From IMG/VR virus record IMGVR_UViG_3300022223_000285: a stretch of 25,797 bases of DNA. One strand, given 5' to 3'. Positions 1,390 to 25,797 of the stretch are shown piece by piece; the first letter of the stretch is position 1; every line of letters starts with the position of its first letter. The notes beneath the pieces are model-generated. The model saw only the letters and a program-made list of their open reading frames with translations. It had not been told where the DNA came from and searched no databases. The stretch comes from a virus (Duplodnaviria; Caudoviricetes). The position numbers and the translations under genes were made by a program.

Positions 1390-3165
1390 TCACACCTCGT
1401 ATGTGTTCGAGTAATAAATAGAATCGTCCGGCAGCGTGATGGCCACCGTCACGCCGATGCCATCGCTGCGGATCCGCGCGGTGCTGCAGTCGACCGCTTT
1501 GGCCAGCCCGGCAGGCACCATCCAGCGCAGCGCCTCGATCGCATACTCGCGCGCCTTGCGCAGGGTCTCGTCTGTGATCTTGCTGCGGTCAAGCAGCCAC
1601 AGCTTGCTGCCGATGGGTTCATCGAGATACGTGTCGGCCCAGTGGCCGCGCTTGTCGTGCGGGTCATCGAGCAGGCTTTCGTCATCAACACGCGCATCGG
1701 TAAACAGTGAGATCAAGATCGCTTCGTCCAGGCCATCGCTTGTCGCCAGGTCATCGCTCTCGCTCGGCAGCTCAGTCTCGCCGGTGATGACCCATTCCGG
1801 TGATCCAACAAAGGTGCCCACATGACCGTTGCCGGATGTGTCGGCCGTGGTCGTGCCGTAACCCTCCTCAATCGGCATGTGCAATACCAGCCCGGTCTCA
1901 TCCAAGTACTGGCCGGCGTAGCGCTCGGCCACTTCCTCGGGTGTGAGTAGGCGGTTGTATAAGCGCGCCGCATGCACAACATTATCGCCTGCCACATAGG
2001 CTTGCCCGATGCGCAGATCAGATGCTGAATTGATTGAGCCGGATTTTGCGGATATATCAAAGGATCCGGTTTCGACGCCGTTGATGTAACCGCGCACCAG
2101 ACCATCGCGATCGAATGTTGCGACCAGGTGCAATCGCTCATGAAGCTCGATTGCGCCGTTCGGTGATATGTTGCCCTCAACGAATGCGACCGTATCGCCA
2201 ATCAGTGCCCTCAATGCTCTCGAGCTGTTCACGCCAAAACGGAAACCAGACAGGCCGGCGCTGGCACCTTTATTTATAATGGCCTTGCTGTCGACAACAT
2301 CATAAACAGTCAGGATGGTTTCAATACTGAAATCACCGATATCAAAGTCCAGCGTCGGATGGGTTGCGACTGAAAGATAGTGATAGTTTGCCGTTCTGCT
2401 AACACGCAAACCAAACTCCGGCTTGGTCAGTCGGCGCTTCTCGGTGCCGGTGTAAATCCAAGAAGGCGCGCCAACAAAACTGCCGATATGACCATTGCCG
2501 GATTGGTCGTAGGTCTTTGTACCTTGGCCCTCGCGAAATGGCAGCCAGAGTTCCAGCCCGGCGTTGTTGCTGTATACGCCTGCTGCGTGTTCGGCGGCTT
2601 CGGTGGCATCGATGACACGGCTGTACATTCGGACGCCGAAGTAATCACCGTTATATGCAGCACTTTGGTGAGTGCCAATTCTCAGTTCATTGGTGTTGCC
2701 GATATCGCCAATCAGGCTGATATCAGTATCGAGCGTGTGCTGCCCGTCCACGTATTGGCTCAAGATACCTGCAGCGCGATCAATAACCCATAGAATTTTA
2801 TACCGCACACCACGTTTGAGAAGGTGCGACCTGTTCAATCGGGTTGTGCCATCATGCAAATAGAACCCGGTTGGCACATCAAGATTCGGATCCAGTTGAT
2901 AGCACGCGATACCATACCCACTAACTAGCCAGGCATCCCCCTTGCCAAGCATCCACATGGGGTTCACGCCATGCGGGTGCATGATATCGATCTCAACAGA
3001 AAAATCGGTGAGACCATGCCTGAGATTCGGGTGGTCAGGAATGTTGACATAATCCAAGCCATCCAAGCCCGTGAACCGGAGACCATACGTCGGCACTTCC
3101 ACCTCGCGGCGCAGTACGTCGATATCAAATTCCCCGTGGCTGTCTTGTTTGATTGCAATGTCCAT
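1390..3165 (-). CDS. Mu gp46-like baseplate protein with two inserted LamG/ConA-like beta-sandwich domains
   Basis: The N-terminal MDIAI..GEFDI and the C-terminal ~120 aa (DL..DGL..AILISLFTDAR...RGHWAD...IGSKLWLL.RSK...AREYA.EALRW) are typical of gp46. The middle holds two LamG-like repeats (HLVATFD...YING, LRIG, RLYNR.L...E, D.SGNGH.G). Confidence 0.85.
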   Translation of the reverse strand: MDIAIKQDSHGEFDIDVLRREVEVPTYGLRFTGLDGLDYVNIPDHPNLRHGLTDFSVEIDIMHPHGVNPMWMLGKGDAWLVSGYGIACYQLDPNLDVPTGFYLHDGTTRLNRSHLLKRGVRYKILWVIDRAAGILSQYVDGQHTLDTDISLIGDIGNTNELRIGTHQSAAYNGDYFGVRMYSRVIDATEAAEHAAGVYSNNAGLELWLPFREGQGTKTYDQSGNGHIGSFVGAPSWIYTGTEKRRLTKPEFGLRVSRTANYHYLSVATHPTLDFDIGDFSIETILTVYDVVDSKAIINKGASAGLSGFRFGVNSSRALRALIGDTVAFVEGNISPNGAIELHERLHLVATFDRDGLVRGYINGVETGSFDISAKSGSINSASDLRIGQAYVAGDNVVHAARLYNRLLTPEEVAERYAGQYLDETGLVLHMPIEEGYGTTTADTSGNGHVGTFVGSPEWVITGETELPSESDDLATSDGLDEAILISLFTDARVDDESLLDDPHDKRGHWADTYLDEPIGSKLWLLDRSKITDETLRKAREYAIEALRWMVPAGLAKAVDCSTARIRSDGIGVTVAITLPDDSIYYSNTYEV

Positions 3166-14213: not shown

Positions 14214-16814
14214 TTAAACCGCAGCGCGGGCCGTTACCGAGTAGGCGATCAGCGAAGTCAGGTGGCCGCGGATAGGCGTCGGCACTTTCATGGCGCTGAA
14301 TTCAGTGCCATACGCCTGTTTCTGACCGGTGGCATAACCATTAGCATCGGTTACCTCGAAGGGCTGGCCGGTGACAAATGGCTTGGCCACGGTGTAGGTC
14401 ATCACATTGCGCTGGCCGATAATGGCGCGCTCTTCGCCCAGGTCCACGCTCGGCGCATTGGTAGAAAATGCACCCACACCCTTGACGGTGGCCAGGTCGC
14501 CCTGGCTGGTGGTATCGGTACCGTTGCGCTTGCTGTCGGCCTCAAAGTTGTTGGCGTTGGTCACGCTGTTATTGAGCGTGTAGCTCATCAGCATGAAATC
14601 CGGCACCACAAACCGATCCTGTGCCATCAATGTTTTGCGATCACCAAAGGCGCGCAGCAAACCATTGAGGTGCAAGCCGATATCAGAGCCAGGATCGTCC
14701 ATGTCAAAGAATTCGACATTGGTTGAGTAGCTGTAGCTGATATCATCCACGCCGGCGGCGTTAGGTGGTGTGGCAGGCGTACCAGATTCATCTACAAACT
14801 GCACATAGCCCAGGTTGTAGTTGATGATGCTGTAATACGTGCCCGGTGCCTGGGTGCCGCTGCCGTCATACTCGGCAATCGCCGCACCATTGAGCCGCAC
14901 AACAATCGGATTTTCGAGGGCGCCGACCGCTGTGCCTTTCAGGTCGCGCTGCTGGTGTGGCCGCACGATCGGGAAGTTGGCAGTTTTCACAATGCTCTTG
15001 GCACCGGTCAGCTGCGCATCCAGGCCTTCATTGGCCACCGCGGTGGCGCTGTAGGCATCCGCGCTGCGCTGCAGCTCGTTGCAAATGCGGCGCACAATCA
15101 GCTCGCGCATGAATCGGGCATTGCTGGCCACGTTGCGGCCGTAAGCATCCCAGTTGATCGCGCTGGCACGGGTAAAGTGCATTACCTCTTCCGAGATAAT
15201 AAAGCCGAGCTTCATGGGCACGATGTACGCGGTATCCATGGCCTGCTGTACTGACGCGCGTCGAATCGGCTGGCCTTCATACACGACGCCATTGTTGAGA
15301 ATGGCGGAGCCATCACGTGTTTCATACGGGATCTCGGTGGTGGCTTGTGCGCTTGGGTCAGTCAGCGTCTGCAACAGTTCCAGCACGCGCAGATCGCTGA
15401 GCGCTTCCATGATCACGGTGCGCTGGAAACCGATCGGCAGCTGGGTATCGCCGATGCCGGTACTGCCAGCGGCAAACTGCTTGGCTTCATGCGCCAGGCG
15501 CACCGCATGGATGCGGTCAAACTCGGCCAGCACCATGCCGATCATGGGGTGTTGCTTGCTTGGGTCTTCGGCCAGCACCAGCTTGCGAGCGGCATGCTGG
15601 GAGGTGCCGCGCAGGCCCCTGTTGATCTCTTCCTGCAACTTCATCACCGAGTTGCGCTCATCAACCGTGATGTGCATGGATCCGGCCGGACCGGCATAGC
15701 CCATGCTGCTGAGCTTGGTGGCGGCCACCATCTTGTTGCCCAGGGCAATCTGGTGCTCAGCCAGCTTGGTCACCTGCTCGGCGGTCATGTTGGCGGTGAT
15801 CATGTCAGCGGCTGAGAGCAGCGCCTTGCGATCATCTTCAGACAGCTGCTTGAGGCCTTCGGCCTCTTCGATAGCGTCACTGAATTGCTTGACGTTGGCA
15901 TCCAGGCTCTCGGCCAGCTTCTTGACCTCTGCCTTTGCCTTGGCATCACGCTCATCCAGCAGCTTGTTGAGATCGTCAGCGGTAACACCGGCAGTGGGCG
16001 CTGGAATGTTCAGGCTGGAAAAATCCAGCTTGATGGCATCGTTGCCGGCCTTGCCGGCCTCGGCCAGCTGCTTGGCGGATTCAACAAAGGCATCAATCAC
16101 GGCGCCGATGGCGTCATCGTTTTCGCCCAGTGTTTTGCCCGCCACTTCCAGCTGGGCCACGTAGGCCGCAATTTGCTTTTCAGACAGGCCCTGCTCAGAT
16201 AGCTGCTTACGCAGCCGATCGATATGTTTTTTCATTTCTTGCTCCAGTTCTTCGGCAAGCATGTACGCCACGCGGTCGCTGACCAGCGCGGGCAGTTCAT
16301 CCTTGTCATGGGATAGGGTTACGGGGTCGAGGCCTTTCACGCGCGGGCGAATGGTCAGGCCGGCGCCAAACAGCAGCGGGCCATGCTCTTTTTGCGTTTC
16401 CGGGTGCAAGTAGTTATCCGTGAAGTCTATCGACAGGTAACGAAAGCCGCGCTTTTTCACAGCATCAATACCAAACTCGGTAAACTCCACCTCCGCGCGC
16501 AGTTTCTGCCCATCCATAAACAGCTTGCGGACAGTTGCCGCCGCGCCATCGCTGGGTGAGTGAGCCACATCAATGAAAATCTCCTGGCCATAGGTGTTGG
16601 CCTTGAAATTCTCAATGAAACTCTCAAACATTTTGCGCGTGAGCTTTACGGTTCCATAGAATGGATCCTTAAACTGCATCACCCGGGCCAGGTTCACGGT
16701 GGTGACCGTGTTGCCATTGTCAAAGCGCCGCGCGTCCACGCGATCCGAGTACAGCCGTATCGCGCCATCCAGCGCCGGTGCCTCAAATGTCATCCGCCTT
16801 GGTTTCAGTGCCAT
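14214..16814 (-). CDS. Fused prohead protease (Mu I-like) / scaffold / major capsid protein
   Basis: N-terminal protease motifs (IDVAH...GAA, F.YLS.DF, GAGLT.RP), a central coiled coil and a C-terminal capsid-sized region. The start is probably the ATG at 16814 (GGAG RBS) rather than 16847. No other capsid candidate is present. Confidence 0.85.
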   Translation of the reverse strand: MALKPRRMTFEAPALDGAIRLYSDRVDARRFDNGNTVTTVNLARVMQFKDPFYGTVKLTRKMFESFIENFKANTYGQEIFIDVAHSPSDGAAATVRKLFMDGQKLRAEVEFTEFGIDAVKKRGFRYLSIDFTDNYLHPETQKEHGPLLFGAGLTIRPRVKGLDPVTLSHDKDELPALVSDRVAYMLAEELEQEMKKHIDRLRKQLSEQGLSEKQIAAYVAQLEVAGKTLGENDDAIGAVIDAFVESAKQLAEAGKAGNDAIKLDFSSLNIPAPTAGVTADDLNKLLDERDAKAKAEVKKLAESLDANVKQFSDAIEEAEGLKQLSEDDRKALLSAADMITANMTAEQVTKLAEHQIALGNKMVAATKLSSMGYAGPAGSMHITVDERNSVMKLQEEINRGLRGTSQHAARKLVLAEDPSKQHPMIGMVLAEFDRIHAVRLAHEAKQFAAGSTGIGDTQLPIGFQRTVIMEALSDLRVLELLQTLTDPSAQATTEIPYETRDGSAILNNGVVYEGQPIRRASVQQAMDTAYIVPMKLGFIISEEVMHFTRASAINWDAYGRNVASNARFMRELIVRRICNELQRSADAYSATAVANEGLDAQLTGAKSIVKTANFPIVRPHQQRDLKGTAVGALENPIVVRLNGAAIAEYDGSGTQAPGTYYSIINYNLGYVQFVDESGTPATPPNAAGVDDISYSYSTNVEFFDMDDPGSDIGLHLNGLLRAFGDRKTLMAQDRFVVPDFMLMSYTLNNSVTNANNFEADSKRNGTDTTSQGDLATVKGVGAFSTNAPSVDLGEERAIIGQRNVMTYTVAKPFVTGQPFEVTDANGYATGQKQAYGTEFSAMKVPTPIRGHLTSLIAYSVTARAAV

Positions 16815-16826
16815 CTCAATCTCCAC

Positions 16827-16866
16827 AAAAAAGCCGAGCCACCGCATCCACGGTATTGCTCGGCTT
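16827..16866 (-). terminator. Terminator/attenuator-like hairpin in the capsid operon leader
   Basis: Minus strand reads AAGCCGAGC-N18-GCTCGGCTT-TTTT, ending just before the RBS. Confidence 0.55.
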
Positions 16867-16986: not shown

Positions 16987-17214
16987 GCAAGACAGGGAAA
17001 AATCCAGCCGTGTTTGTGTTTTCTTATAATTATTCTGTAAGGCAATATCGAGCAAAAAGGCAGACGTTTTACAGATAATCGAATCAGAAGGCTGAATGAT
17101 TGAAAAAACGGCAAGGAATCACAACAAATGTTGTCATGGGCTCACCTTGTATCACGCGCGGTACTGGGGTACTGTTCCGCCTACGGAACGCAGATAATAA
17201 TGCGAGTTGAAAGA

Positions 17215-17234
17215 GTACACTCTACTGCTCAGCC
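17215..17234. repeat. 20-bp exact direct repeat, copy 1 (GTACACTCTACTGCTCAGCC)
   Basis: Identical to 17365-17384; both copies are followed closely by TGGGAC. Confidence 0.95.
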
Positions 17235-17250: not shown

Positions 17251-17281
17251 AAAAAAGCCCGGCACTCAGCCGGGCTTTTTT
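17251..17281. terminator. Bidirectional intrinsic terminator
   Basis: AAAAAAGCCCGGC-ACTCA-GCCGGGCTTTTTT; begins 7 nt after the CCA of the tRNA-like gene. Confidence 0.92.
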
Positions 17282-17287
17282 GCTATC

Positions 17288-17416
17288 TGGTGTCGCCGGC
17301 GGGACTTGAACCCGCATGATCCAGGACACTCTCTGAGAGTAGAACCCGGCAATATGCTGGGTTTGTACACTCTACTGCTCAGCCCTGGGACTCTAGCCTG
17401 TTTGAGCTACAGCGAC
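17288..17416 (-). ncRNA. tRNA-like RNA (129 nt) with encoded CCA and a 58-nt structured insert replacing the anticodon loop
   Basis: GTCGCTG-TA-GCTC-AAACAGGCTA-GAGT-C-CCAGG-[58 nt]-CCTGG-ATCAT-GCGGG-TTCAAGT-CCCGC-CGGCGAC-A-CCA: 7-bp acceptor, 4-bp D stem, 5-bp anticodon stem and canonical T arm. Confidence 0.88.
17365..17384. repeat. 20-bp exact direct repeat, copy 2 (5' side of the expanded anticodon arm)
   Basis: Identical to 17215-17234, offset 150 bp. Confidence 0.95.
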
Positions 17417-17427
17417 ATTGTGAACAC

Positions 17428-17433
17428 ATTATA
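17428..17433 (-). promoter_or_regulatory. Sigma70 -10 element for the tRNA-like RNA
   Basis: Perfect TATAAT ending 11 nt upstream of the mature 5' G, implying a ~5-nt leader; no good -35. Confidence 0.6.
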
Positions 17434-17481
17434 TGCAGTGTCCATGCTTGCACCTAGCACTTTATTTACATGCGCTAAAAG

Positions 17482-17511
17482 TTAAAAACCCGCTGCTATC
17501 GTGCCGGGTTT
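17482..17511 (-). terminator. Probable terminator of the terS-MuF operon
   Basis: Minus strand reads AAACCCG-GCACGATAGCAG-CGGGTTT-TTAACTTTT, about 100 nt after the last ORF. Confidence 0.45.
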
Positions 17512-17612: not shown

Positions 17613-17867
17613 TCAGGCCTCAATTTCAATCACAAAAGAGCAGGCTGGGCAGCTATACCGGTCGAGATGGTTACCACTAGGCTCGTTTTTCATCTCTGTT
17701 GGCAGGCCTTTTATCATGAAACATCGCGGACATAATTTGCCATCCTCTAGCCTGTAGGCGTCGTATCGAGACTGCGCAGCTTCCAGATCAACCGGCAAGG
17801 AAGATCCATCCTGGATGGATTCAAGAATATATTCAGCCTCGCTCAATAAATCGTTGTTCATAGCCAT
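17613..17867 (-). CDS. Small zinc-ribbon protein (CPRC...CPAC)
   Basis: 84 aa, GAGG RBS, two CxxC motifs, AT-richer than the structural genes. Confidence 0.7.
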   Translation of the reverse strand: MAMNNDLLSEAEYILESIQDGSSLPVDLEAAQSRYDAYRLEDGKLCPRCFMIKGLPTEMKNEPSGNHLDRYSCPACSFVIEIEA

Positions 17868-17874
17868 TCCTCGG

Positions 17875-18060
17875 TTATCGTTGATAAACCACCGGCACCT
17901 TCACCCATCCCTTGCACTGCCGGCACTTCGCCTCAGCCGTGCCGGCGGGCAGGATCCGCACCACGCGCGACTTGAGCGCCACACCATCAAACACCACGCT
18001 TTTGCATTGTGTGCAGGCAACATGCGGCCGGGTGACCAGGTTGGCGACGGTTGCCGTCAT
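17875..18060 (-). CDS. Com-like zinc-finger protein
   Basis: 61 aa, V.CTQC...F...EAKCRQCK, similar in size and pattern to Mu Com (IRCKNC..LF...EIRCPRCK); ATGA-coupled to the upstream ORF. Confidence 0.6.
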   Translation of the reverse strand: MTATVANLVTRPHVACTQCKSVVFDGVALKSRVVRILPAGTAEAKCRQCKGWVKVPVVYQR

Positions 18061-18266
18061 GCATCGGCCTCATCAGGAACGTCAGCACCCAGCTCATCAT
18101 CAGTTATCTCACCTCGCTCGCCGGCGATGGCTTTGTGCATCTCTGTCACCAGGTACTCCACCTTGTCATCCGGCACGCTCAACGGGCTAAATGTGAGCTC
18201 GCCGAATTTTTGCCTGTACTCCATCTGCAGTACCGGAAAATCCGTATCATGTAGATCAACCATCAA
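18057..18266 (-). CDS. Small acidic protein, candidate immunity protein for the MuF toxin domain
   Basis: 69 aa, overlaps the MuF stop, GGAGG RBS. Confidence 0.55.
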   Translation of the reverse strand: MMVDLHDTDFPVLQMEYRQKFGELTFSPLSVPDDKVEYLVTEMHKAIAGERGEITDDELGADVPDEADA

Positions 18267-20337
18267 TCACCTCCTGCAATATATCCTCAACAAACTTGGA
18301 AAAATTGGGTACAAACGTCCGCATATATTCCCGCTGGTATGTTCCAGCCTTGTAGTCAAGCAGGCAAAACGTATTGGCAAAGGCCTCAGCCTGTCGACCA
18401 AACCCGGAGCGCTGCTTGTAGTAGGCATTAGAATGGCCCCACCCCACCCGGTTGCGGGTGACAGCCCCGGCCAGGTCGGCCATGTGTCCGGCATCGGGAT
18501 GCTTGAACATCGATTCACAGAGTATGGCAGTATCACCATATCGCTTGCCGTTGGCCAGCAGTATAGCCGCATGATCATTGGTTATCTCTATATCCGGGCT
18601 TTTGAGCAATAAATCAAATATGTCATTACCGCCGGGCAGCTGCTTGCGTGCGGCGGCGGCGGCGCTGGCCACATCGCCATGCTCACGAATAAAATCATTC
18701 ACATCCAGAGACCGCGCCTGGTTATAGGCGCCACTTGAAAAGCGCCGTTTTGCCAGTGATGGATGCCTTTTCTTGGCACCCTTGAAATAGTTTTCTTGCA
18801 GCTGCCTGATATGCACATCATCGGCCTCCAGCGCGGCCGTGCCCTTGCGACCGGATGAGATATAATTGCGATAAAATGTGGTTTCGTGCTCTCCCTTGCT
18901 TTCCTTCCAAAGTCCAATCTTATCATCCAGATAGTGGCCATACTCATGGCGCATGGTGCCTTGCCCGGATAATGTATCCGGGTGCTTGCCGGCCATGTGA
19001 ATTTTGCCATTAGAATAATATGCACCGCCGGTAGTCTTGGGTATTTCGCCAGGGGCATGAAAACGCGCCGCTGATTTTTTCAGAGTGTCGCTGTTGAATG
19101 TGCCGGCCTGATCCCATCGATCGAAAAACTCATTGGAGCGGCGATTTGGCGAGCCTGGCTCCAGCGTTGGCAGGTTTGGTTTGATATTAACCGCCACCGG
19201 CTTGGCAATGATTGCGGTAGGCGGCCCAGGCACCGGCATCAATTTGGCTACATCAATGCCGCGCTTCTCAAACCGATTTTTTAATACTCGCCATGGCGTT
19301 GCGATTTCATTCTGTTTGAGGATGCCGGCATTAAATGCTGCCTGCTTTTTCTGGCTCCCCAGCACGCCGGTCTGCACGCTGGCTGATTGGCTCCCCAGCC
19401 AATCCAGTCGATCCTGCTTGCCGGCCCGGTCATCCGCAGTCACTTCATCATCAAACACCATCTCCACAAAGCTCAACGTGTTGGGATGCGCCGGCCAAGG
19501 GCAGGCTGACCGGTTCGGGTACACACCAGGACCAAGGCCATACAGGTTGGCGCTTGCATGCATATCACAGATATCCACGCGCGGGTGGTTGGGTGACAAC
19601 AAAAACCGCCAGCCGACAAACCCCTCCACCTGCTCACCGCCGGCCATGTAGGCCTCGCCATGCGCGCGGTTGATCTCGGTGCGGAATACGCGCCGCGCCT
19701 GCCAATAGGGTGCATCGTCACCTTGCATCAGCGTGCCGGCTGCCACCTTGGCCACGCCGTGCGCATTGGCGATGCCGAGTTTGTCGGCAAGATCCGTCGG
19801 CACGGTGATGCCCTTGGCCAGGTACTCCTGCGCGGCCTTGCTGGCGTTGTGGCCCTGGATAATGGCGCTCTGGATCTGGCGGCCCATGATCTCGCGTGCG
19901 TGGTTACTGTTACGCCACAGGCGATCGCTCAGCTGCAGGCCATCCTCTGCCACAAAGTTGCGCACAAACAGTGCCGCCTCTTCCGCCACCTGGAAACTGG
20001 CCAGGCCGATGCCATCGTAAACACCGGCGCCGTACTTGGCGGCCTGGTCAATGCCATCCCATAGCATCTGATCACGCGCCAGCTCCAGCGAGCGCAGGCG
20101 ACCGTTCACCTGGCCAAGCAGCTGCTGCATCGTATCCAGGCGCAGACTGCCACGATCATCACCATAACTGCGGATGACATTCTCGATCTCGGTGCGGGTT
20201 TGCAGGTACAGCGCCTCCAGGTCGTTGAGTGCATCCCGATCCAGCTTGCGCATCGATACCTGGGCGGCATTGGTGCCACGCTTGATCGCCGCCTTGGTCG
20301 CGGTGCGAGCATTGGTTGCCAGTGCCACGCCTGTCAT
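18256..20337 (-). CDS. MuF / SPP1 gp7-like head protein with a C-terminal zincin metallopeptidase extension
   Basis: MuF motifs (LSDRLW, R..RTEINRA, DICD, PAHPN), a Pro-rich linker, then HEYGH and a downstream EAFA. Confidence 0.85.
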   Translation of the reverse strand: MTGVALATNARTATKAAIKRGTNAAQVSMRKLDRDALNDLEALYLQTRTEIENVIRSYGDDRGSLRLDTMQQLLGQVNGRLRSLELARDQMLWDGIDQAAKYGAGVYDGIGLASFQVAEEAALFVRNFVAEDGLQLSDRLWRNSNHAREIMGRQIQSAIIQGHNASKAAQEYLAKGITVPTDLADKLGIANAHGVAKVAAGTLMQGDDAPYWQARRVFRTEINRAHGEAYMAGGEQVEGFVGWRFLLSPNHPRVDICDMHASANLYGLGPGVYPNRSACPWPAHPNTLSFVEMVFDDEVTADDRAGKQDRLDWLGSQSASVQTGVLGSQKKQAAFNAGILKQNEIATPWRVLKNRFEKRGIDVAKLMPVPGPPTAIIAKPVAVNIKPNLPTLEPGSPNRRSNEFFDRWDQAGTFNSDTLKKSAARFHAPGEIPKTTGGAYYSNGKIHMAGKHPDTLSGQGTMRHEYGHYLDDKIGLWKESKGEHETTFYRNYISSGRKGTAALEADDVHIRQLQENYFKGAKKRHPSLAKRRFSSGAYNQARSLDVNDFIREHGDVASAAAAARKQLPGGNDIFDLLLKSPDIEITNDHAAILLANGKRYGDTAILCESMFKHPDAGHMADLAGAVTRNRVGWGHSNAYYKQRSGFGRQAEAFANTFCLLDYKAGTYQREYMRTFVPNFSKFVEDILQEVIDG

Positions 20338-21753: not shown

Positions 21754-23448
21754 TCATCCTGTCGCGCGCAGTTTCTGCCCCAGCAGCTTGGCGCGGTTGG
21801 TGTGATTGATCTGTATGATTGATGGCACGATCAGCGCGCCACGAGTAACCAGCGCCCAGTGCGCTGCCATGTAGGCATCAAAGCAGTCATCACCCAGCTT
21901 GGCGTCCGCCATCTTGTAGGTTGAATAACTGGTTTTGGTTTGCATGGGCACGATGTTGGTGATCTGTCGCTGCAGCAGTCGCATATCCTGCTCAGTCTGC
22001 GTGAGCTTGTCGGCATCGCAATCTTCGACGTATGGCATGGCCGCCTGGTGCGAGTGGAAAGAGCTGCGCACGGCTTGCGCCATGCTGTGCTTGGTCATGC
22101 CCTCAAAGCGCAGCGGCGCAAACGCCCATTCCGACCAGGTGCTGGCCGTGCTTTCGCCCTCGCCGATATTGCGCCGGTTGATGGTGGTCAGGTTGTTGAA
22201 ATACAGCTGATCATTCAGGTTGGTCATCATGCCAATGCCATAGGCGTCACCGATCGCGCAATCCGGATCAAAGTATTGCCAGTACGCCAGCAGATCCGCC
22301 TCAACAATTTTTTCATCCGTGCCCGGTGGCCAGGTGCGGGCATAGCGTGTGCAGGTAAAATTGCCAATCTGCTCCAGCACAACAAAAGCATATCTTGATG
22401 ACTCCTTCCGCTCACCGTGACCGGAATGATCATAGCCAAACGATATCAATCCGGATTTTTTATACTTCTCGCCCGGCATTGGCTCAACAATTTCCAGCCC
22501 TACCTCAAAGCCGATATGCAGCGCCCGGCGCAGCTTCTCCTCCCAGACCAGGTTGCGGCTGGCAATGTTGATGCACAGCAGCTGCCGCACAAACTCATCC
22601 TCACTGAGCTCGTCTTTCATCTGCATGATGAATGATCGCTGCAGCAGGTCCATCTCCATGGCCAGCATCGCATTGGCAATGGGGATCGGGTACTTGTAGG
22701 TCTTAACATCCACCGCATCGGCACTCAGCAAGTCTGCCGCAATCATGCGCTGCAGCAGGTTGCGCGCAGCGTCGCCAAACACGGCGCCGATCACGCGATA
22801 CGTGCCGGAGATCGCCATATCAGCCAGGGTATCCGCGCCCTTGAAAACACCAGTGATGCGGATCTTTGGATCATTGCGGCTCTGCTTGCTCGCGCCCAGG
22901 CGGCGCGAGGATCCCAGCATCAACAAAAAGCGCGAATCCAGGCGCGCCTTCGGCATGTCGTCAACCTCTTCCAGGCTGGCCTTGGTCAGATCACCACCGT
23001 CCACCTGGGCCATGATGCCGTAGGCCTGCGCTTTGCTCCGGTTGGCAAATTCATAGCGGGTGTCACTCATCTGCTTGCGGCCCGACTTGAACGCCAGGTA
23101 ATTGCTCAGGACCGGCGATCGGCGAATGGCATCCAGGTGATAATTGAGGTTTACAATCGCCTGGGCTTCGCGCGGTGCCACAATGCCCAGCTCCTGATCT
23201 GGATTGCAGGCATTATCCTTGAGCTCATACATCTCCTTGCACGCCGTTTTGCCGGTACGGCGGCTGGAAAAGTCGATGGTGTTGTTGTGCTCATCCATCT
23301 CCTGCATTTTCAGCAGCTGCACCTGGTCAAGCTCCACATTGTGCACATGCTTGTGCCAGAGCCCGTGGCTGTCGGCATAGCGCAGCACCTCGCGCTCCGC
23401 CACATTCTGCAGCTGGATACGCTTCCGGGCGCTGATACGCTCAGGCAT
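21754..23448 (-). CDS. terL: Terminase large subunit
   Basis: Walker A SRRTGKT, VAPREAQA, Walker B SLEEVDD, RNase H-like FGYD and terminal DD.FDA. Confidence 0.92.
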   Translation of the reverse strand: MPERISARKRIQLQNVAEREVLRYADSHGLWHKHVHNVELDQVQLLKMQEMDEHNNTIDFSSRRTGKTACKEMYELKDNACNPDQELGIVAPREAQAIVNLNYHLDAIRRSPVLSNYLAFKSGRKQMSDTRYEFANRSKAQAYGIMAQVDGGDLTKASLEEVDDMPKARLDSRFLLMLGSSRRLGASKQSRNDPKIRITGVFKGADTLADMAISGTYRVIGAVFGDAARNLLQRMIAADLLSADAVDVKTYKYPIPIANAMLAMEMDLLQRSFIMQMKDELSEDEFVRQLLCINIASRNLVWEEKLRRALHIGFEVGLEIVEPMPGEKYKKSGLISFGYDHSGHGERKESSRYAFVVLEQIGNFTCTRYARTWPPGTDEKIVEADLLAYWQYFDPDCAIGDAYGIGMMTNLNDQLYFNNLTTINRRNIGEGESTASTWSEWAFAPLRFEGMTKHSMAQAVRSSFHSHQAAMPYVEDCDADKLTQTEQDMRLLQRQITNIVPMQTKTSYSTYKMADAKLGDDCFDAYMAAHWALVTRGALIVPSIIQINHTNRAKLLGQKLRATG

Positions 23449-23893
23449 TGCGCATCTCCCATTTTACTTTTTCTTTTAATGGGTGTTTATCAGACCTCTC
23501 TCTGTTTTCCCTACTCCATGATCCACCACCAGCTGGGCCCATAAATCTCCATCCGGCGGCGCGCAAGCTGGCACCACCCTCCTCTGGCAAGGTGTAGGTT
23601 ATTATGCCGGTAAAACCCAGAGCCTTTGCAGCTCGCCATGCTGCGGCGTATAAAAACGAACATGCATTTTTATACCCGTCCGTACAAAGCCTATTTACCT
23701 CGAGTGTTGCCCCATCATCTGCATGCCGTGAGACAGGCCTGCCAACAATGGCCACACCTCTAATCTTAACGCCATCACTCACTGCAATACTGAATTTATG
23801 ACCGGTGGCGGCCTTGTGGTGCCGGTGATAGTACCGGACAAACTCATTTGCCTGTCTTAAAGATAGCGGCACAAGTCTCATATGCTCACTCAC
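23441..23893 (-). CDS. XF1762-family / Mom-like GNAT-fold putative DNA modification protein
   Basis: AN.FV...HRHH, GVAIVGRPV.R..DDG.TLEV.RLC, NACSFLY.A and ITYTL..E.G.SLRA.GW motifs. Probable start is the GTG at 23893 (GGAGGT 8 nt upstream). Confidence 0.8.
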   Translation of the reverse strand: MSEHMRLVPLSLRQANEFVRYYHRHHKAATGHKFSIAVSDGVKIRGVAIVGRPVSRHADDGATLEVNRLCTDGYKNACSFLYAAAWRAAKALGFTGIITYTLPEEGGASLRAAGWRFMGPAGGGSWSRENRERSDKHPLKEKVKWEMRNA

Positions 23894-24824
23894 GGCGCAC
23901 CACCTCCGCATCGATCACATCGCCCTTGATCGGTGACGTGTTGCGGTTGATGAGCTCAATGAGTTTCTGCTGTCCCTTTGTCTGGTGCTCCAGGAATTGC
24001 TGCATGGTCTCGCGGTCATTCTCGGCATGCTCCAGAAAGCCCTGGGTGATCTCCTGCTCATCCTGCACCTTGGCAGTCATGCCCATGTCGCCCAGCGCCA
24101 GGTTGTTTTTGCCAATGAATTCCATCAGCGGTTTGAGCAACGGATGGGCTCGCAGCTCCGTCAGCACCTCCTTGGCACCGGTGTCCGGATCCGTCACCTC
24201 GCCAATATGCAGGCGGCCCTCTTTATCGAAACCATAAACCGGGGATTCGATCTGCACACCCTTGCTGATAATGCCCAGCAGCATGTCATCGATGATCGCG
24301 CGGAGAGTTGCCTGCAGTTCTGCGTTGTATCGCTGCAGCTTGCTCGGATCCTGCTGCTCAAATGCAGCCAGGTGTTTCATATAGAGCTCGGTTCGAATCA
24401 AACACACCTTTTCATCAAAACACTCCAGGGAGCGCCGATATCGGCAACCGTTGCAGGCGTCATACTTGCCAGGCTTTGCGGGGAAATATCGGGCCACCTT
24501 CGCGTGCAGGCCGGTGGTCATCCGGTTAAACCGGGTAATCAGCGCCTCCTGCGGTGTAGGGTGTCCCTCCAGGTTCGCCGCGCTGGATGCCTTGCCCTCC
24601 GGCGTCTTCGGCCCCGTAGCGCTCGCCCAGCCCTTTAGCAGATTGCGCTGCCAATGCGCCTGCGGCGCCTCATCACCGCACTCAGGACACCGGCCAAAGT
24701 ACTCCCACGGATGCCACGGACGTGACTCATCGGGCTCCACCCTGGTTGGTGCAGCCTCAAACTTCTCGCCGCAGCTGCAGATAAACTTCGCAGCCGGCAG
24801 TTGATCATCGGATTTTTCACCCAT
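23886..24824 (-). CDS. Probable terminase small subunit with Cys-rich Zn-binding segments
   Basis: First gene of the packaging operon; TGPKTPEGK..S..N...G motif common in TerS-like proteins; CxC..CxxC and CxxC..C..C clusters. Confidence 0.7.
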   Translation of the reverse strand: MGEKSDDQLPAAKFICSCGEKFEAAPTRVEPDESRPWHPWEYFGRCPECGDEAPQAHWQRNLLKGWASATGPKTPEGKASSAANLEGHPTPQEALITRFNRMTTGLHAKVARYFPAKPGKYDACNGCRYRRSLECFDEKVCLIRTELYMKHLAAFEQQDPSKLQRYNAELQATLRAIIDDMLLGIISKGVQIESPVYGFDKEGRLHIGEVTDPDTGAKEVLTELRAHPLLKPLMEFIGKNNLALGDMGMTAKVQDEQEITQGFLEHAENDRETMQQFLEHQTKGQQKLIELINRNTSPIKGDVIDAEVVRRE

Positions 24825-25419: not shown

Positions 25420-25797
25420 TCAGCGCTCGAGTATTACAAAGGCGACAGCGTAGTCTTGTTCATCACTCAGACTGATATTCATGGCGACAATATCATGCTC
25501 ACACGCAAACTTGTCAGCATAGCCGCTTAGCTTTAGCAGCGGTTTACCCAGGTTATCGTTGGTAACAGCAATATCCTTGAGGCGGAGACCATTACGGAAT
25601 CCCAGGCCCATTGCCTTCGCCGTTGCCTCCTTTGCCGCGAATCGTTTTGCCAGAAAATTGGCGCGCTTGCTGATCTTCACATACTCATCAAATTCCTGTT
25701 GCGCAAGAATTCTGCGAGCAAATTCATCGCCAAACCGGTCAATACCGTGTTGCATACGGTTAACCCGGACGATGTCGGTGCCAATACCGAATATCAC
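25420..25797 (-). CDS. acpS: Holo-[acyl-carrier-protein] synthase (host gene)
   Basis: GIGTDIV, AKRFAAKEA..KA.G.G, GKP and SLSDE..YAVA motifs; 125 aa. Confidence 0.97.
   Translation of the reverse strand: MIFGIGTDIVRVNRMQHGIDRFGDEFARRILAQQEFDEYVKISKRANFLAKRFAAKEATAKAMGLGFRNGLRLKDIAVTNDNLGKPLLKLSGYADKFACEHDIVAMNISLSDEQDYAVAFVILER

Follow-up and report, generated by a model that had tools for sequence, protein, structure and literature searches.

In the engineered tRNA scaffolds of Ponchon and Dardel, a cargo RNA is reportedly grafted on the anticodon stem of a tRNA, and the cell is said to process and stabilise the product as a tRNA. Among the small RNAs of phages, P4 CI acts in conjunction with repeats that the transcript itself carries. 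In the passage of PMC5499578 that deals with them, CI and the C4 RNA of P1/P7 are described as small temperate-phage RNAs that are matured by RNase P, hairpin-like and without a T loop. RNAC and RNAD of T4 (the species 1 and 2 RNAs) are expressed, and in the section of PMC9697503 that concerns them they are called 'RNAs of yet unknown functions'. The tRNA genes of the Lak megaphages carry, according to the tRNA section of Devoto et al. (2019; PMC6784885), 'enigmatic introns', anticodon-loop inserts of no known class that were found with intron settings. Here, we describe a tRNA-shaped RNA gene (17288..17416, minus strand; 129 nt including the encoded CCA) in which a structured rod of 58 nt takes the place of the anticodon loop. 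It lies in a 25,797-nt stretch of viral DNA (Duplodnaviria; Caudoviricetes; IMG/VR record IMGVR_UViG_3300022223_000285), referred to below as the window. With somewhat less than even confidence, we regard it as an independent gene of the prophage, whose product would be a tRNA-scaffold RNA that is neither spliced nor used in decoding, the tRNA body being the chassis and the rod the working part.

The window makes up the initial 25.8 kb of a contig of 108.9 kb, and the host genome (2.96 Mb) is 99.9% complete. Structured RNAs were sought with Rfam cmscan and with ARAGORN, the latter at default settings and with introns allowed (-i). Promoters and terminators were sought with a consensus scanner, and folds were compared with those of 200 shuffled sequences. 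The only match in the window at the Rfam gathering level was to tRNA (RF00005), at 17416-17291, with 39.9 bits against a cut-off of 29 (E 2.4e-05). All of the 71 model positions were covered, and 58 nt replaced the 7-nt anticodon loop. ARAGORN found no tRNA in the window at default settings; only when introns were allowed did it call one, and it then drew the same cloverleaf as the Rfam alignment. The minimum free energy (MFE) fold of the 129 nt was also this cloverleaf with the rod (-52.6 kcal/mol, z -4.2), and none of the 200 shuffles folded as well.

The gene runs on the minus strand from its 5' end at 17416 to the CCA at 17290-17288. Its body is made up of the acceptor stem GUCGCUG/CGGCGAC, a D arm, the anticodon stem CCAGG/CCUGG, a 5-nt variable loop and the T arm GCGGG-UUCAAGU-CCCGC, followed by the discriminator A73; the base preceding G1 is U. 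The tertiary and conserved bases were read off the sequence as U8-A14, A15-U48, G18 and G19, A21, U54-A58, U55, C56 and G53-C61, with UUCAAGU as the T loop. The coordinates, the intact body with its CCA and the tertiary positions that a preliminary description of this DNA had put forward were all recovered in this way. Compared with a canonical tRNA (RF00005), the RNA has the four-stem cloverleaf and the conserved bases of the D and T loops, and it lacks a 7-nt anticodon loop with U33 and a readable anticodon. When all the 7-nt combinations of the two ends of the insert were placed on the 5-bp stem, position 33 was always C or G. With 58 nt in the place of the loop and no canonical loop that can be restored, the RNA is likely unable to decode. 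ARAGORN found no tmRNA.

The rod (17326..17383, minus strand), as delimited by the cmscan insert and the fold of the arm, prolongs the anticodon stem. The 68-nt anticodon arm alone folded with -27.4 kcal/mol (z -3.47; 0 of 200 shuffles as good). From the stem outwards there follow CCAGG(G)/(U)CCUGG, a 6-nt bulge on the 3' side (AGAGUG), the helix CUGAG/CUCAG, a bulged C and the helix AGUAGA/UCUACU. An 8-nt bulge on the 5' side, GUGUACAA, i.e. (A)GUGUACA(A), then leads to the apical hairpin ACCC-A-GCA UAU UGC-C-GGGU, which has UAU as its triloop. Save for a shift of one base in register, these are the helices and bulges that had been proposed for a 58-nt structured cargo. K-turn and loop-E readings of the bulges were judged by eye and dropped, the required G.A pairs being absent.

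The locus was present in four DNA runs of sediment metagenomes, of which two may be the source of the window, and in no RNA run. The contigs of the DNA runs carried the same locus, with no insert-free form among them. An independent contig, from run X3, had two changed letters, one of which (17353) is the middle base of the apical triloop of the rod. Within the rod, this variant, the sole natural one seen, differs in the apical triloop alone.

The gene stands in a cassette with the order terminator, promoter-like block, gene, terminator. The upstream module (17427..17511, minus strand) consists of the terminator-like hairpin T0 (17511-17484), which is followed by a T run, and of a promoter-like block with TATAAT at 17433-17428, 11 nt before G1. 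In an alignment with host DNA, the 85 nt from the T0 hairpin to TATAATG had an identity of 76-80% with the spacer that separates rplI (ribosomal protein L9) from dnaB in the host, and the likeness ended right after TATAATG. The host counterpart, flanked by the L9 and DnaB genes, is at 24007-24091 of contig C16 of genome G000 (1501-1585 in L002). Judged by this likeness, the phage probably borrowed a host regulatory module, or the reverse. Such a host-type terminator-promoter module upstream suggests that the gene could be expressed in the lysogen. On the other side, the terminator T1 (AAAAAAGCCCGGC-TGAGT-GCCGGGCTTTTTT; 17251..17281, minus strand), a GC hairpin with a T run that appears in both the MFE and the centroid folds, begins 6 nt past the CCA. 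Being symmetrical, it could act in both directions. The consensus scanner called neither T0 nor T1 as a terminator. The one promoter-like site that it reported here, TGGACA-16-CACAAT (last base 17417), does not exceed the number obtained with shuffled sequences. By eye, no good -35 hexamer was found for TATAAT. The independent cassette of the preliminary description is thus borne out as far as its parts go, since the TATAAT, the hairpin 6 nt after the CCA and the upstream hairpin exist, but the scanner calls none of them.

The last base of the anticodon stem and the first 19 nt of the rod form a 20-mer, GGCTGAGCAGTAGAGTGTAC (17365..17384, minus strand), which occurs a second time in the same orientation at 17215..17234, 16 nt past T1 and 130-150 nt downstream of the first copy. 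These were the only exact matches in the window, and none arose in 100 shuffles; a third exact copy was not found in the host genome. GTCCCA stands upstream of both copies, at 17243-17238 before copy 2 and, before copy 1, in the tRNA body itself (where the D stem ends and the anticodon stem begins), so that the duplicated piece spans the joint between body and rod. The 20-mer was also searched genome-wide with up to four mismatches, which gave the two local sites and one site with four mismatches; the remainder of the RNA gave merely scattered 12- to 15-mers. A small multi-copy mobile insert, such as a miniature inverted-repeat transposable element or a repetitive extragenic palindromic element, was rejected on this ground, the genome holding no further copies. 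The repeat, the host-like upstream block, the absence of splicing enzymes (see below) and the loop that cannot be restored are points that the preliminary description did not contain.

How does this RNA compare with the described systems? Like RNAC and RNAD of T4, it would be a small, stable, non-decoding, tRNA-related RNA encoded by a phage. Those RNAs lie in tRNA clusters of lytic phages, whereas the gene described here is a solitary one of a temperate Mu-like prophage and has a promoter-like block and terminators to itself. Membership of the RNAC/RNAD type by sequence or by location in a tRNA cluster was rejected, as blastn gave no likeness and the window has no other tRNA. With the Lak genes it shares an anticodon-loop insert of no known intron class in a phage tRNA gene. 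As far as the tRNA section of that report goes, excision of the Lak inserts gives a recognisable tRNA type and anticodon, conserved across phage genomes, whereas removal of the insert here would give a non-canonical tRNA, and no relative was found. The architecture is the same as that of the engineered scaffolds, with the cargo on the anticodon stem; the scaffolds are man-made, whereas this RNA is natural, and its processing and stability are predictions. tRNA genes that are split by integrating or small palindromic elements are likewise interrupted in the anticodon loop, with a short direct repeat close by. The present locus differs from them in that there is no integrase, the insert is 58 nt long and single-copy, and no displaced half of a tRNA lies past the second repeat. 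The kind is the same, but the setting, a temperate prophage of small size with a cassette that stands by itself behind a host-like promoter block, is new.

At E up to 10, Rfam gave no family beyond tRNA between 16800 and 17900, and in particular no intron, ribozyme, riboswitch, tmRNA or Y RNA. The view that the RNA belongs to no described family therefore stands for Rfam, with the exception of tRNA, but its kind is known, from RNAC and RNAD of T4 and from the 'enigmatic introns' of the Lak phages. The C4/CI antisense RNAs (RF01695, clan CL00128) were rejected, with no match in the window at the gathering level or around the locus at E up to 10, and no complement of at least 7 nt within 40 nt of any of 29 start codons that could mark a target such as a ribosome-binding site (RBS). 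Maturation by RNase P is likely shared with C4 and CI, to judge from the tRNA-like sequence; unlike them, the RNA has a T loop. Bacterial Y RNA (YrlA) was rejected as well: Rfam gave no match, TROVE (PF05731) was absent from the genome while the controls were positive, and the RNA ends in an acceptor stem, not in a Ro-binding stem. As there is no Ro60 gene, a Y-RNA-like role is unlikely.

Searches for homologues found none. When the RNA was compared by blastn with 50,697 phage records, nothing was found at E up to 1e-5, and at E up to 10 there were just matches of 28-32 nt to the T arm and acceptor. The weak matches in Pseudomonas phages adjoin an integrase, and so were rejected as homologues and taken for att-type tRNA fragments. 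Viral contigs were scanned for exact 20-, 25- and 26-mers and for a gapped helix pattern, with no match, and a search of metagenome contigs for the 20-mer returned the window's own contig alone. No homologue was found by blastn in 6 genomes of the family and 103 of the order. A covariance model, built from this one sequence entered twice, was run over 4 genomes and 92 loci. In the four genomes it picked up ordinary tRNAs only, and in 79 loci of capsid relatives (530 kb) it gave one match at chance level (16.6 bits, E 0.12), inside a capsid open reading frame (ORF); 10 other related loci held no homologue. Upstream of the capsid gene, ARAGORN found no tRNA in 80 loci, and Rfam found none in the 30 loci of relatives that were scanned with it. 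The preliminary description had envisaged a comparison of homologues; neither the related loci, nor the genomes of the order, nor the contig scans supplied any.

Targets were sought in the window and in the genome. Within 40 nt of any of 29 start codons, there was no complement of at least 7 nt to the unpaired parts of the rod. The best duplex energy of the rod with the window was -53.5, against a mean of -51.8 (range -56.1 to -47.3) for 20 shuffled rods. The 12-mers shared between the rod RNA and the genome were scattered, with no target above chance.

These results bear on the main rival to the scaffold reading, which we consider a serious possibility though on the unlikely side. According to it, the gene is a dead tRNA gene: an ordinary cassette had its anticodon loop wrecked by a local insertion or duplication, and the rod and the repeat are by-products of template switching or slippage, with no function. 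The gene is indeed unique, being absent from every related phage locus examined, and neither target nor partner was found. Moreover, the insert is in part an exact copy of nearby sequence, and GTCCCA before both copies resembles a microhomology junction. The 3' strand of the rod repeats the 5' strand imperfectly and in inverted form, and AGAGUGU is present twice, as fold-back copying predicts. The 20/20 identity of the repeat suggests a recent event, which would also explain why the tRNA body has not decayed. However, the flanks of the insert do not sum to a normal 7-nt loop on a 5-bp stem, so a simple insertion is insufficient. Random insertion would rarely yield a rod with a z of -3.5 that is stacked exactly on the stem, and the part of the rod beyond the 20-mer has no source elsewhere in the genome. 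Nor is the body close overall to any host tRNA, the best being tRNA-Leu(GAG), with 24/28 over the 3' 28 nt.

The likeness to tRNA-Leu(GAG) belongs also to another explanation, an intron-bearing tRNA, which we consider improbable. Here the inner 49-51 nt would be excised by an unspecified route, leaving a decoding tRNA-Leu with the anticodon GAG. ARAGORN -i does call tRNA-Leu(GAG), and the 49-nt intron that it proposes is where introns of the anticodon loop usually lie. The T arm is identical to that of the host tRNA-Leu(GAG) at 16 of 17 positions, and over the 3' 28 nt this tRNA is the best of the 41 of the host (24/28, the next having 21/28). A73 and A15-U48 would fit the identity of E. coli tRNA-Leu. 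In the section of PMC6784885 on Lak megaphage tRNAs, introns of unknown kind are also reported. Against this, the sole solution offered by ARAGORN has U37, an anticodon stem of 6 bp and a body of class I, in which the long variable arm is missing. Bacterial tRNA-Leu is of class II, with a long variable arm, and the Leu tRNAs of the host are 85-87 nt long. ARAGORN -i is, besides, permissive: it made 15 other 'intron tRNA' calls in the genome, most of which overlap real tRNAs or tRNA pairs, and the three that were tested, which are stand-alone, had no Rfam support.

A route for splicing was not found either. A bulge-helix-bulge consists of two 3-nt bulges on opposite strands with a 4-bp helix between them, at the exon-intron borders. 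The fold of the arm has instead two helices, of 5 bp (nearer the stem) and 6 bp, with a 1-nt 5' bulge between them, a 6-nt 3' bulge on the stem side and an 8-nt 5' bulge on the apical side. The tRNA-splicing endonuclease (PF01974) and RtcB (PF01139) gave 0 matches each in the 99.9%-complete genome, in a search that also covered the other host contigs, where the rest of the prophage lies; the controls were positive in 4 and 10 of 14 genomes. A group I intron is about 200 nt or more in length and has a group I core; 58 nt is far too short for one, and no ribozyme family matched. Finally, CUC and CUU make up 19.5% of the Leu codons in the phage vs 24.6% in the host, so there is no extra demand for tRNA-Leu(GAG). 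The lack of a bulge-helix-bulge, of the endonuclease and RtcB and of a restorable loop points to something other than a tRNA awaiting splicing.

A function at the DNA level is very improbable. In this reading, a phage protein would bind or recombine the DNA at the two 20-bp direct repeats, and the tRNA shape would be incidental or an att relic. Exact 20-bp direct repeats do lie in the regulatory spacer before the capsid operon, with two small zinc-ribbon ORFs of no known family just upstream, and tRNA anticodon-loop regions are classic integrase crossover sites. On the other hand, the neighbourhood has neither an integrase nor a recombinase, a tRNA would not be regained if the repeats recombined, there are only two of them, and the complete tRNA body, the CCA and the rod would be left unexplained.

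According to the scaffold reading, which we favour, the gene would be transcribed from the host-type promoter, probably in the lysogen too. RNase P would cut off the 5' leader, with U at -1, and the 3' trailer would be trimmed to the CCA. A 5' end made by RNase P is plausible, given the tRNA body and the U at -1. The resulting 129-nt RNA would be stable because it is tRNA-like, and its rod would be a helical stalk from which AGUGUAC and AGAGUG(U), both single-stranded, are presented to a partner. The role as a guide, regulator or decoy that the preliminary description put forward is an inference. The exact copy of the 5' strand of the rod on the downstream transcript suggests that the RNA may be a decoy or competitor. 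As the partner, we would favour a protein or an RNA for which the same 20 nt on that transcript are a second recognition site, in which case the RNA would compete for this site and would not act as an antisense. A more specific version is a long shot. In it, the scaffold decoy would titrate a factor, perhaps the 84-aa zinc-ribbon protein encoded next to it, away from the site upstream of the capsid operon, and would help to set late-gene expression or the behaviour of the lysogen.

Several points weigh against the scaffold reading. The RNA was a singleton across all searches, so there is no covariation and no sign of purifying selection. Neither in the window nor in the genome was a partner or target found. 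The promoter is weak by consensus. The decoy idea draws on one pair of repeats, of which copy 2 sits behind a strong terminator, in a stretch without notable structure (z -0.68). A recent insertion would be enough to account for the intact body.

Every long ORF of the window is on the minus strand, and together they make up the late genes of a myovirus prophage, some parts of which are Mu-like. They include the genes for a MuF-type head protein (18256-20337) and for an 877-aa protease-scaffold-capsid fusion (14214-16847), in addition to a Mom-like gene and genes for portal, sheath, tube, tape measure and baseplate. The tRNA-shaped gene, which has a small zinc-ribbon gene on one side and the capsid gene on the other, occupies a variable accessory slot within the head-gene module. 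The adjoining upstream gene (17613..17867, minus strand) is an orphan ORF of 84 aa, a Cys4 zinc ribbon (CPRC...CPAC) with no Pfam, PHROG or PADLOC family; its only match was itself, and it is absent from related phages. Relative to those phages, it belongs to the same insertion as the tRNA-shaped gene. A second Cys4 zinc-ribbon ORF, of 61 aa (17875-18060, minus strand), likewise matched no Pfam, PHROG or PADLOC family, and it follows MuF in three related prophages with 45-59% identity.

Prophages that share MuF, a 69-aa ORF, the 61-aa zinc-ribbon ORF and the capsid gene were found in 3 of the 400 genomes sampled in the class. In these three, the space between the zinc ribbon and the capsid gene holds about 120 nt, an opposite-strand ORF of 203 aa, and about 2 kb with a helix-turn-helix protein, respectively. 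Phages related through the capsid gene (54-61% identity) have other upstream genes and no tRNA. In phage L015, which was found via MuF (42% identity), a lipoprotein-like ORF and a C4 antisense RNA lie downstream of MuF. The C4 RNA (RF01695, 64.7 bits) is at 2946-3032, about 740 nt downstream of the MuF gene, and its loop, UCCUUUG, is complementary to CAAAGGA, which belongs to the RBS of the ORF that follows (ATG 3084). Two capsid relatives, L047 and L079, have a Phage_DGR RNA (RF03022, 80.5 bits) at 718-844, about 1.7 kb upstream of the capsid gene; as coordinates and scores are identical, they may be the same phage sampled twice. Since the content of the slot differs among relatives, the tRNA-shaped gene and the 84-aa ORF are cargo of a variable accessory slot. 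The analogy with P4 CI and P1 C4 drawn in the preliminary description gains from the C4 RNA in the matching slot of L015; an antisense target was found neither in the window nor in the genome.

The downstream edge of the slot is marked by a terminator-like hairpin before the capsid RBS (AAGCCG...CGGCTTTTTT; 16827..16866, minus strand), with a conserved GGCATAACGCG ahead of it. In an alignment with L024, L025 and L026, the hairpin was present in 4/4 phages. To judge by its position and sequence, it may be an attenuator or an anti-termination point for the capsid operon. The ATG of the capsid ORF as listed (16847) falls inside the loop of this hairpin. Conservation places the start at M12 instead (ATG 16814; MALKPRR...), a residue that does not vary among five aligned homologues. 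A further hairpin with a T run, T2 (17103..17149, minus strand), was seen in the sequence and in the fold. It encloses an ORF of 17 codons (MTTFVVIPCRFFNHSAF, ATG 17137), whose good Shine-Dalgarno AAGG is paired with CCUUG. From its sequence, this ORF could be a leader peptide or a product of chance.

Some further observations were made on the rest of the window. The Mom-like DNA-modification gene (23441-23911, minus strand; PHROG 1384, E 1.5e-37) immediately precedes the presumed large terminase gene and overlaps with it; the terminase gene is without a match to any PHROG or Pfam family. The prophage is truncated at its baseplate genes by the start of the contig (window position 1). At its other end, a host-type 4'-phosphopantetheinyl transferase gene (25420-25797) begins about 1.5 kb past the Mom-like gene. 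With the prophage cut by the contig start and a host-type gene at the other end, the early region and the tail-fibre genes must lie on another contig.

If the locus is merely a broken tRNA gene, it is an ordinary scar, and it warns that an intact-looking tRNA body is no proof of function. If, on the other hand, the RNA is made and is stable, nature would have reached the 'tRNA scaffold' trick that engineers use for foreign RNAs, and the exact downstream repeat provides a concrete hypothesis for what the rod may do. The long-unexplained tRNA-like RNAs of lytic phages would then extend to a small temperate prophage, in which genetics would be easier, with one cassette, one promoter and one rod.

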